In this document: piece after piece, positions 2,462 to 32,002 of the stretch
Position numbering within the stretch: the stretch's first letter is position 1
Layout: each line of letters begins with the position of its first letter
IMG/VR virus record: IMGVR_UViG_3300036987_000083
Coordinates: 32,001 to 96,000 of that record
Reading direction: 5' to 3' (one strand)
DNA length: 64,000 bases
From: a virus
Position numbers and translations under genes: made by a program
Notes under the pieces: generated by a model
Database searches by the model: none
Seen by the model: the letters and a program-made list of their open reading frames with translations, nothing else
What the model was told of the DNA's origin: nothing

Positions 2462-2522
2462 GGGTGCCTGGGTAGGGCTACCGATGAGCTATAGGCCTGA
2501 GTAGCCCGAGCTACTTCCCGAG

Positions 2523-2594
2523 TGACCCCACCGGGATTCGAACCCGGATTCTCACCTTGAAAGGGTGGCGACCTAACCCTTAGTCGATGGGGCC
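2523..2594 (-). tRNA. trnE: tRNA-Glu(UUC)
   Basis: cloverleaf; loop CTTTCAA; TTCGAAT T-loop; no encoded CCA. Confidence 0.95.
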
Positions 2595-2687
2595 TTGCTG
2601 CTGTTTTTCTAGCATGAGGTGAGTAGAAGTACGAAGATTACGGGGGACCACGTCAACAGCGTTTCGATTACAACTTGTTTTGTCATA

Positions 2688-2759
2688 TAGACGCGGCTGG
2701 ATTCGAACCAGCGACCCGCTCCGTGTAAGGAAGCAGCTCTACCCCTGAGCTACGCGCCT
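2688..2759 (-). tRNA. trnV: tRNA-Val(UAC)
   Basis: cloverleaf; stem GCTTC/GGAGC, loop CTTACAC. Confidence 0.93.
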
Positions 2760-2760
2760 G

Positions 2761-2833
<73 letters not shown>

Positions 2834-3432: not shown

Positions 3433-3477
3433 GCTCTGTACATAGCACGATGTACCTGCCGGTGTCAAGCGGCGGGA

Positions 3478-3702
3478 CTAGGAAGAGTTCGAGCTGTGGT
3501 GGGTGCTCGTCGCCCTTGAACGCAGGATGGAGTGCATCCTCCTCCGCACCACCGACCCTGACCACGACGTCGACCACGCCCTCGACCTCGACCACGCCCT
3601 CGACCTCGACCTCGACCTCGACCTCGACCTCGACCGCAGCCACGCCCTCGACCACGCCCTCGACCATGACTTCGTCAGCCGCCTAACAATCATCAGGCTC
3701 AT
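3478..3702 (-). CDS. Ser/Arg/Trp-rich peptide 5 (MSLMIVRR...)
   Basis: ATGA overlap; AAAGGA SD; shared N-terminal motif. Confidence 0.7.
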   Translation of the reverse strand: MSLMIVRRLTKSWSRAWSRAWLRSRSRSRSRSRSRAWSRSRAWSTSWSGSVVRRRMHSILRSRATSTHHSSNSS

Positions 3703-3959
3703 ACGGTCCTTTCTCTTGAATGGCGAGTGGAGCGCATCCAGCACGGCGTGCTCGACCTCGCCCTTGAGATCGAATGTGACCTCGATATCGACTGTGCGTT
3801 AGACCGTGACCGCGCCCGCGACGGCGACGACCACATTCCCGTCCACGCCAGTGACCACAGCCCAGTCCGCGAGCCAGACCGCGTCGACACCCGCGACCAC
3901 ACCTTCGTCCATGACCACGTCCGCGTCTTTGGCGGCCGTCTAACAACGATCAGGCTCAT
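3699..3959 (-). CDS. Ser/Arg/Trp-rich peptide 4 (MSLIVVRR...)
   Basis: ATGA overlaps at both ends. Confidence 0.7.
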   Translation of the reverse strand: MSLIVVRRPPKTRTWSWTKVWSRVSTRSGSRTGLWSLAWTGMWSSPSRARSRSNAQSISRSHSISRARSSTPCWMRSTRHSRERTV

Positions 3960-4207
3960 AAGGTCCTCGCTCTTGAACGTTGTGTGGAGCGCAACCCTCC
4001 CCGCGCCGAAACGTTTGAGCTCGACCATGCCCCCGACTTTGACTCTGATTTGGACCACAACCTGGACCCCGACCGCATCCACGACCCCAACCTGGACCTC
4101 AACTCCGACCCCGCCCTCGGCCTGGACCTCAACTCCGACCCCAACCACGACCTCGACGTCAACCACGACCATCCACCAGGGCGTCGCCGAACAATAATTA
4201 GGCTCAT
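3956..4207 (-). CDS. Ser/Arg/Trp-rich peptide 3 (MSLIIVRR...)
   Basis: ATGA overlaps at both ends. Confidence 0.7.
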   Translation of the reverse strand: MSLIIVRRRPGGWSWLTSRSWLGSELRSRPRAGSELRSRLGSWMRSGSRLWSKSESKSGAWSSSNVSARGGLRSTQRSRARTL

Positions 4208-4419
4208 ATGGCCCTTTCTCTTGAGCGGCGAGTGGAGTGCATTCGTATCCGCACCACCGACCCTGACCCTGACCTCGACCCCGACCTCGACCACGACCTT
4301 GACCTCGACCACGACCACAACCACGACCACAACCTGGACCCCGACCTCGACCTTGTATTCGACCTGGACCACGACCTCGTTTTCGACTTCGTCAGCCGCC
4401 TAACAACGAGTAGCTTCAT
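4204..4419 (-). CDS. Ser/Arg/Trp-rich peptide 2 (MKLLVVRR...)
   Basis: ATGA overlaps at both ends. Confidence 0.7.
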   Translation of the reverse strand: MKLLVVRRLTKSKTRSWSRSNTRSRSGSRLWSWLWSWSRSRSWSRSGSRSGSGSVVRIRMHSTRRSRERAI

Positions 4420-4688
4420 ACCGCCCTTCTTCTGAGGCGGCCGGGCCTACCCTCCTCTAAAATTGAACCCGTGCGCGACCATACCTGCGTCCGTAGCTTC
4501 GATAGAGCGTGGATGCGGTTTCTGGACCACGCCAGAGACTTAAACTCCTTACGTCTCGTACCCCGTACTAGTGATTTTAGCGCCAAACGCAACGGCGACT
4601 GTACTAAGGACTGTAACGTGTGACGCGGCCCTAATAGGCGCCGCGCCCGAGTCATTTCCAGTCGACGCACTACGAGTAGTGTCGTCAT
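4416..4688 (-). CDS. Arg-rich peptide 1 (MTTLLVVRR...)
   Basis: ATGA overlap with 4685..5011; same LxVRR start motif. Confidence 0.65.
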   Translation of the reverse strand: MTTLLVVRRLEMTRARRLLGPRHTLQSLVQSPLRLALKSLVRGTRRKEFKSLAWSRNRIHALSKLRTQVWSRTGSILEEGRPGRLRRRAV

Positions 4689-5011
4689 TTCGTGGCGATT
4701 GTTCCGCCCTTGAGGATTCGTGAAATCCCGACGACGGGACGTTCCACCGCGAAGTCGCCGAGGTACTCGGCTTCCACGCAGTTCGCGGGGTCGGCGACGA
4801 AGCTGTGCAGACGGCCTGCGTCAGCGATCCAGCTAGCGTCCTCCAGAAGGTAGTAGCTCGGAGTGATTGCTGCGATTCGCCCGTAGTAAATGGGGTCCGC
4901 GCAGATGATGGCGACCCAGGCCCCAGGCTTAAGCCAGGAACCTGCCTCCTGAAGGGCGTCATCGCTCACTGCCACCTGCTCGGCCCGAATTTCCTGCTTA
5001 GACTTCGACAT
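4685..5011 (-). CDS. small predicted beta-barrel protein (YYGRI...LEDASWIADAGR...VEAE), DUF6948-like from memory
   Basis: motif recalled from phage genes that precede Ser/Arg- or Gly-rich ORFs; AGGAG SD. Confidence 0.65.
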   Translation of the reverse strand: MSKSKQEIRAEQVAVSDDALQEAGSWLKPGAWVAIICADPIYYGRIAAITPSYYLLEDASWIADAGRLHSFVADPANCVEAEYLGDFAVERPVVGISRILKGGTIATK

Positions 5012-31892: not shown

Positions 31893-32002
31893 TGCTCTTT
31901 TTCTGTTGGCCAGGCTTGCAGGTGGAACTTGTGGGAGTTTTCCATTAGACGCCCAAAAAAAACCTGGGCCGAAGCCCAGGGTTTCCTACGGCAGCCTGGT
32001 CG

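Follow-up and report, generated by a model that had tools for sequence, protein, structure and literature searches.

Five coupled peptide genes behind a predicted Sm-fold protein: an amplified variant of a widespread phage gene module

Introduction

What is encoded by a run of five short, low-complexity reading frames that follow a single small gene in a viral genome, and how might such a run have arisen? The question is raised by a locus in a window of 64,000 nucleotides (positions 32,001 to 96,000 of IMG/VR virus record IMGVR_UViG_3300036987_000083, which is 179,489 bp long and carries 46 predicted tRNAs), where an array at 5011-3478 forms the end of a long series of small leftward genes. 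An earlier note on this DNA offered three readings of the encoded peptides: cationic condensers of nucleic acid that fit a nearby histone gene, RiPP-like precursors or kinase substrates that the small partner protein would process, or binders of that partner. Here, we consider whether the genes are real and in which frame they are read, how they are related to similar genes in other phages, what the partner may look like, and which of several explanations the evidence favors.

The gene chain and its reading frame

Six minus-strand ORFs make up the array (Table 1), and all five joints between them are exact ATGA overlaps. This is the longest ATGA-linked chain of the 179-kb genome, in which every other chain comprises at most two linked ORFs. 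The chain had been described in these terms before, and the description is borne out by the ORF lengths, the coordinates and each of the overlaps; that the six chained genes are real is very nearly certain. The proposed common start, M-x(1-2)-L-[LIM]-[VI]-VRR, likewise fits all five peptides. The further claim of five Ser/Arg/Trp-rich peptides holds for peptides 2-5 (Ser 24-31%, Arg 19-24%, Trp 7-8%; net charge +15 to +19) but not for peptide 1, which is Leu/Arg-rich and has no Ser-X core. Peptide 1 retains a charge of +19, but an NGG codon follows none of its 8 Ser codons, as against 15 of 20 in peptide 2, and homologue searches with peptide 1 found none. As for the AAAGGA Shine-Dalgarno sequence that had been assigned to the array, it is exact before peptide 5 only; AGAAGGG, AAAGGG or GAGGA is found elsewhere, and peptide 1 lacks a clear Shine-Dalgarno sequence altogether.

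Table 1. Features of the array and its surroundings, in window positions
Feature	Position	Strand	Remarks
Partner gene, 108 aa	4685..5011	-	predicted Sm/LSm-fold barrel, N-terminal helix, net charge -4
Peptide 1, 90 aa	4416..4688	-	VRR leader kept; core diverged, Leu/Arg-rich, two WSR remnants
Peptide 2, 71 aa	4204..4419	-	VRR leader and canonical (Ser-[R/W/G])n core
Peptide 3, 83 aa	3956..4207	-	VRR leader and Ser-X core, partly decayed
Peptide 4, 86 aa	3699..3959	-	VRR leader; Ser-X core partly decayed, Thr-enriched, Arg mainly CGG
Peptide 5, 74 aa	3478..3702	-	VRR leader and (SR)n/AWSR core; the chain ends here
Junction repeat, copy 1 of 3	4185..4242	-	tail, RBS, ATGA, leader (repeat family D3)
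Junction repeat, copy 2 of 3	3937..3994	-	58-nt repeat
Junction repeat, copy 3 of 3	3680..3737	-	58-nt repeat
Promoter-like 14-nt element, CTTGACA..GGCAG	3456..3469	-	9 nt past the last stop of the array
Bd0055-like histone, 59 aa	2921-3100	-	Bdellovibrio, PDB 8fvx, E 5e-11; about 380 nt downstream of the array
tRNA-Lys, -Val and -Glu genes	about 2522-2833		after the histone gene

Which frame of these repetitive genes is the meaningful one? The earlier note had set a Val/Glu-rich frame against the Ser/Arg/Trp (SR) frame, and the codon evidence upholds the latter. When the five leaders in the window are compared, 28 synonymous and 14 non-synonymous codon differences are seen, with none at codon position 2, a distribution that indicates protein-level purifying selection on the VRR leader in the SR frame. 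In the cores at homologous loci, each peptide uses essentially a single Ser codon (TCG in 71, AGC in 24, TCA in 18, TCT in 13 and AGT in 2). Across loci these codons switch between the TCN and AGY boxes; Ser is retained through the switch, while in the other two frames the residues differ, which leaves the SR frame as the only conserved one. The coupled ATG starts belong to the SR frame as well, and the codons show this frame to be the selected one. The Val/Glu-rich frame and an antisense Asp-X frame were both rejected as coding. Fusion of products by a programmed -1 frameshift was also rejected: a slippery heptamer occurs in 1 of 87 joints, and the non-overlapping joints use every frame. RNA structure at the junctions was no better than that of shuffled sequence (z +0.5 to -0.9).

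The cores themselves are hexamer arrays, each unit consisting of one Ser codon and one NGG codon, with Arg, Trp and Gly shuffling at every second residue. Within the NGG codons, these three residues are separated by single-base steps. Across the homologous loci, core Arg is AGG or CGG in 935 of 968 codons and core Gly is GGG in 857 of 899; within the window, all 43 core Arg codons are NGG, compared to 27% in the long ORFs of the genome. A single Arg codon (AGG or CGG) is used in 68 of 73 cores, and for the most part three hexamers account for about 90% or more of a core. The simplest reading would be that three hexamer alleles are shuffled by slippage or conversion, with selection for the Arg/Trp/Gly mix. 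Mutagenesis by a diversity-generating retroelement (A-to-N) was considered and rejected, on the grounds of the single Arg codon in those 68 cores and the lack of any recurring neighbour family within 2.5 kb on the module's strand. Strict Ser-X alternation has broken down in peptides 3 and 4 and has vanished from peptide 1, and the copies in the window are older or more diverged than those of typical arrays. As a separate matter, TCC is nearly absent as a core Ser codon (12 of 2873, in the cores of about 128 peptides); perhaps it is avoided because TCC-NGG would give tandem CCNGG palindromes, with consequences for restriction/methylation or hairpin formation.

A two-gene module in many phages

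The survey of homologues yielded 213 distinct partners, of which the 176 with at least 150 nt of downstream sequence were scored; one subfamily predominates in the sample, and decayed peptides, of which peptide 1 is an example, escape the scoring. A (Ser-[Arg/Trp/Gly])n peptide gene directly follows the partner in 148 of the 176, so the linkage with the partner family that had been suggested for this locus is indeed conserved. One such S-X peptide is found in 135 cases, two in 10 and three in 3; the 28 partners with none include the close relatives L012, L015, L018 and L210. The position of the signal is equally distinctive, with 86 of 97 loci positive downstream of the partner and 10 of 97 upstream, as against 2 of 97 for a control position 2.5 kb away, and the first partner-peptide joint is a -4 overlap in 74 instances. 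The view that an amplified array is unusual needs to be qualified: only 13 of the 176 loci have two or three copies, but an array of five is also found in a sister family (L305, see below).

In the window, the partner falls within the WxxDTGR homologue family, and peptides 2-5 are coupled downstream peptides with a leader and a core of Ser-codon/NGG hexamers, peptide 1 having the leader only. It is virtually beyond doubt that the window array belongs to a widespread two-gene module of phages, as an amplified and divergent copy. The partner family is almost confined to viruses, and one pattern scan of viral contigs gave 267 candidate matches versus a single GenBank phage record. At one locus (L003:4939-5546) the order is reversed, with the S-X peptide upstream of the partner, and the Val-rich frame of the peptide had been fused to the partner in the gene call (P0003). 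In 69 of the 213 loci the contig stops no more than 600 nt downstream of the partner, compared to 30 upstream, as expected if arrays of repeats disrupt assembly or differ among the members of a population.

How well are the two ends of the peptides conserved? Leaders of the VRR type occur after the closest partners (L125, L001, L011 and L019), which form one clade with the partner in the window (SH-aLRT 97 in a quick version of the tree, built on 103 columns). A targeted IMG/VR scan for further loci of the VRR clade found none, leaving the clade at five loci, and it is in these closest homologues that the expected conservation of the leader holds. In the main subfamily, the leader is mostly of the MNAAILRxGFD type. 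Concordance of leader and partner would also be expected from linkage alone.

The tail is a different matter. A 58-nt unit that spans the tail, the ribosome-binding site (RBS), the ATGA and the following leader is present three times, with 81-86% identity. The tail motif of peptides 2-5 shows 7 synonymous versus 18 non-synonymous differences, with 15 differences at position 2, and it was found in 0 of 354 other loci. What had been described as a conserved tail thus survives as shared DNA, in the three junction units, and not as protein under constraint; the tail is a duplicated RBS junction, a record of array growth by tandem duplication, with no conserved follower peptide. The related proposal of a precursor-like design, with constant ends around a variable core, does not hold up, since one of those ends is merely this duplicated junction and is absent elsewhere.

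The predicted structure of the partner

An AF2 model of the partner, computed with 39 sequences, has a pLDDT of 95 and consists of a helix (residues 5-22) followed by a bent, five-stranded antiparallel barrel. The best 40 matches from VIA-align were mostly Sm/LSm proteins, and at the top of both the Foldseek and the VIA-align results almost all were; superposition on yeast SmF with VIA-align gave Z 8.8 and an rmsd of 1.8 Å over 63 residues. The partner is therefore predicted to have an Sm/LSm fold. Sequence comparisons were negative throughout: searches of Pfam, PHROGs, PDB sequences and GenBank phages with the partner returned nothing, the LSM Pfam profiles matched none of 39 family members, and a profile search of the PDB returned no Sm chain. 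The family conserves G30, G44, L56, W61, G66 and E80 and a loop with TPxxY, as well as D58, D64, E82, R67 and R91, and the barrel carries an inserted WxxDTGR helix. Neither the Asp/Asn uridine pocket of Sm1 nor, by position, the Arg-Gly of Sm2 is conserved in the family, which makes RNA binding by the barrel doubtful.

Two relatives (P0027 and P0031) contain the partner domain in two tandem copies within one protein, hinting that the domain may work at least as a dimer. When longer versions of the partner with fused segments were sought, five proteins came up, none of them with a Ser-X tail. When the L191 partner and peptide were modeled as one chain (with the stop changed to Gln), the leader was left unplaced at a pLDDT of about 50. 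With a short tether, a locus from another subfamily and just five alignment rows covering the peptide, the test was weak and does not speak against binding.

A sister module of opposite charge

The named family nearest to the partner, by Atlas features and in BFVD, is DUF6948. Comparison of the partner and DUF6948 profiles with hhalign gave a probability of 20%. The DUF6948 profile, PF22253, matched neither the partner nor 38 relatives, whereas the positive control (L005) was recovered with E 8e-32; a search of the genome with the same profile also gave no match, and in that search the control likewise went without one. The partner is best placed as a distant sister of DUF6948, with weak sequence similarity.

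The two families share their gene organization. DUF6948 genes are also carried by cultured phages, Iodobacter phage PhiPLPE being an example. The gene next to DUF6948 encodes a (Gly-[Ser/Tyr/Asp])n peptide in 41 of 45 cases, and the median charge of these peptides is -9. At L305:1754-2800, one DUF6948 gene is followed by a tandem array of five acidic Gly-X peptides that have a MES-x-MxSDG leader in common. Five basic residues and two Trp are conserved in DUF6948, while four acidic residues and a Trp are conserved in the partners of S-X peptides. The two modules are therefore mirror images in charge, one pairing a partner that bears an acidic patch with basic peptides and the other a basic partner with acidic peptides. 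The opposite charges of partner and peptide in both modules argue for direct binding, against processing of precursors and against a protamine-like function, and they are the best indirect sign of partner-peptide binding. The acidic sister peptides also mean that polycation chemistry is not a common feature of the two modules.

A partner of the S-X type lies within 1.5 kb of a DUF6948 locus in 4 of 63 cases. At L293, L295, L333 and L336, and also at L028, a basic Ser-X module and an acidic Gly-X module lie within about 1.5-3 kb of one another. In the present virus, a minus-strand (Gly-Ser)n hexamer array at 100448-100714 of the record (36 kb beyond the partner and outside the window) lies inside a 1463-aa plus-strand ORF; it is probably the Pro-rich linker of that protein and no module peptide.

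How might the module work?

We think it probable that the Sm-fold protein binds its coupled peptides directly. This was the last of the three original readings, and the mirror charges make it the likeliest of them, as a prediction. In such a mechanism, a Trp/acidic patch of the partner (D58, W61, D64, E80 and E82) would take the Arg-bearing leader or core, and the barrel would capture the peptide coupled to it, as an adaptor or chaperone. The complex could then act like an Sm/LSm/Hfq protein whose low-complexity disordered tail is supplied in trans. Early in infection, multivalent Arg/Trp/Ser peptides might associate with RNA or bring about RNP condensates, and the handling of host or phage RNA would be altered. 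Tandem duplication of the tail-RBS-leader junction would have led to five peptides per partner, raising the dose and leaving the composition free to drift, from the canonical SR/SW to the Leu/Arg-rich form.

Taken as a whole, this scheme, in which an Sm adaptor receives its disordered tail in trans and acts on RNA or RNP condensates, is tentative, falling somewhat short of probable. An RNA role leaves one of the two modules unexplained, since electrostatic binding to RNA is out of the question for the acidic peptides of the sister; the partners that lack an adjacent S-X peptide (28 of 176) also count against the scheme. A broader proposal, somewhat unlikely as it stands, is that of a phage family in which hexamer arrays of Trp/Arg/Gly codons yield disordered peptides of tuned composition that are captured through cognate leaders and form condensates or decoys; the mirror-charged sister might co-act, and arrays would represent diversified repertoires for one adaptor.

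Two other explanations share the direct-binding step with this mechanism. Cationic peptides rich in Arg and Trp are commonly antibacterial, and the peptides could be toxins that shut off the host at the membrane, ribosome or nucleoid, with the Sm protein timing or neutralizing them. The partner is translated first and coupled at about 1:1, the peptides usually occur with a partner whereas partners can stand alone, and the module sits among early accessory genes, all of which would suit a toxin with a chaperone or antidote. However, five toxins per antidote would be an odd ratio, and the acidic Gly-Tyr-Asp polymers of the sister module are unlikely to be toxic in like manner; we consider the explanation unlikely. 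Alternatively, hypervariable peptides that are delivered or stabilized by the partner could titrate away or poison a sensor of host defence or a polymerizing signalling protein, with copy number and divergence reflecting an arms race. Such counter-defence decoys would account for fast turnover at fixed composition, for several independent types of Ser codon, for copy expansion and divergence among copies, and for a family found almost only in viruses. Still, it is composition rather than sequence that is conserved, a pattern more in keeping with bulk physical properties than with specific recognition; the chance that the peptides are decoys seems small.

Could the peptides condense DNA in the manner of protamines, together with the phage histone? 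Their Arg content and net charge, given above, are suitable, and the Bd0055-like histone gene is only about 380 nt downstream. That gene, however, is set apart from the array by the phage-wide promoter-like element of Table 1, which occurs in 37 copies between 1467 and 53414 in the window, nearly all on the minus strand, where 0.13 would be expected. The copy at 3456..3469, as a putative promoter, probably starts a new transcription unit comprising a 64-aa gene, the histone and three tRNAs. No histone gene was found at the 354 other loci, and the proposed histone connection is unsupported on both counts. Searches for protamine or SR-protein homology gave sub-threshold compositional matches only (TP2, E 0.8; PRP38_assoc, E 0.04) and no RRM. 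With sister peptides that are acidic, and with the partner and the leader left unexplained, protamine-like condensation is quite improbable.

The idea that the peptides are RiPP-like precursors or kinase substrates, with the partner as their processor, was suggested by the combination of a leader with a variable Ser-rich core and by the presence of several precursors behind one partner. A 108-aa predicted Sm barrel has no enzyme fold, though, and no enzyme, protease or transporter family recurs beside the module on the same strand within 2.5 kb (a few loci at most), although enzymes encoded elsewhere are possible. The follower, or tail, is not conserved either. Processing by the partner, as put forward in the earlier note, is therefore unsupported, and we regard it as very improbable. 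Least credible of all is that the repeat itself, as RNA or DNA, is what functions (with GG recurring at 6-nt intervals and the Sm protein as its binder), or else another frame, the peptides being incidental, since for all the extreme nucleotide regularity of the Arg and Gly codons, the other half of the hexamer is restricted to Ser codons from both the TCN and AGY boxes, the coupled ATG starts lie in the SR frame, the leaders evolve synonymously, and NGG is simply the one-step codon set of Trp, Arg and Gly.

Direct capture of the peptides by the partner is thus the reading that we prefer. The pairing of an Sm fold with RS-like or FUS-like disorder underlies eukaryotic RNP condensates, and if the partner does bind its peptides, the module would offer a simple and testable case of that pairing in a prokaryotic virus; the present array, with five natural peptide variants for one partner, would be a ready-made specificity series. 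The module is present in hundreds of uncultured phages, has neither a profile nor a paper, and is often called in the wrong frame by gene callers. Literature searches, which covered few subscription papers, found no description of either the S-X or the DUF6948 module, and no paper describing DUF6948. What is new at the window locus is the divergent partner subfamily with its VRR type of leader, together with the strong divergence of the five copies.

Comparison with known systems

The eukaryotic and archaeal Sm/LSm proteins include several, namely SmD1, SmD3, SmB and LSm4, that carry RG low-complexity tails. Hfq has a disordered C-terminal region (PMC10590398). The phage module resembles these proteins in pairing an Sm-type barrel (Z 8-8.8) with a disordered, Arg-rich segment of dipeptide repeats. 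It differs in that the tail is a separate, hypervariable and amplifiable gene with its own leader, and in that the partner has no sequence similarity to these proteins, has lost the RNA-pocket residues and has gained the inserted WxxDTGR helix. The DUF6948 (PF22253) module is similar in gene order, in arrays of up to five, in an X trio of small, aromatic and charged residues and, at times, in adjacent location, but its peptides are oppositely charged and their invariant residue is Gly rather than Ser.

A precedent for an LSm domain as a peptide adaptor comes from the Edc3/LSm14 type, which binds short linear motifs, the helical leucine motifs of eukaryotic decapping factors. The partner model matches Edc3 with Z 6.5-7.6; the known ligands, however, belong to eukaryotic decapping.

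[quoted passage not shown] The partner is likewise predicted to be a small LSm-like phage protein, but no sequence link to the GoF family was detected, and a term search of that paper returned no passage with a repeat-peptide partner (PMC12152347). The Sm ribonucleoproteins of Borgs have amino-acid tandem repeats fused at the N terminus, with Sm1 and Sm2 intact (PMC9879509). There too, a mobile element brings together an Sm fold and disordered sequence that is encoded by tandem repeats and evolves rapidly, except that the repeats are fused in Borgs and occupy separate genes in the phage module. Seen against these systems, the array appears to be a real, unpublished variant of the theme of an Sm fold plus a disordered tail, split into separate genes.
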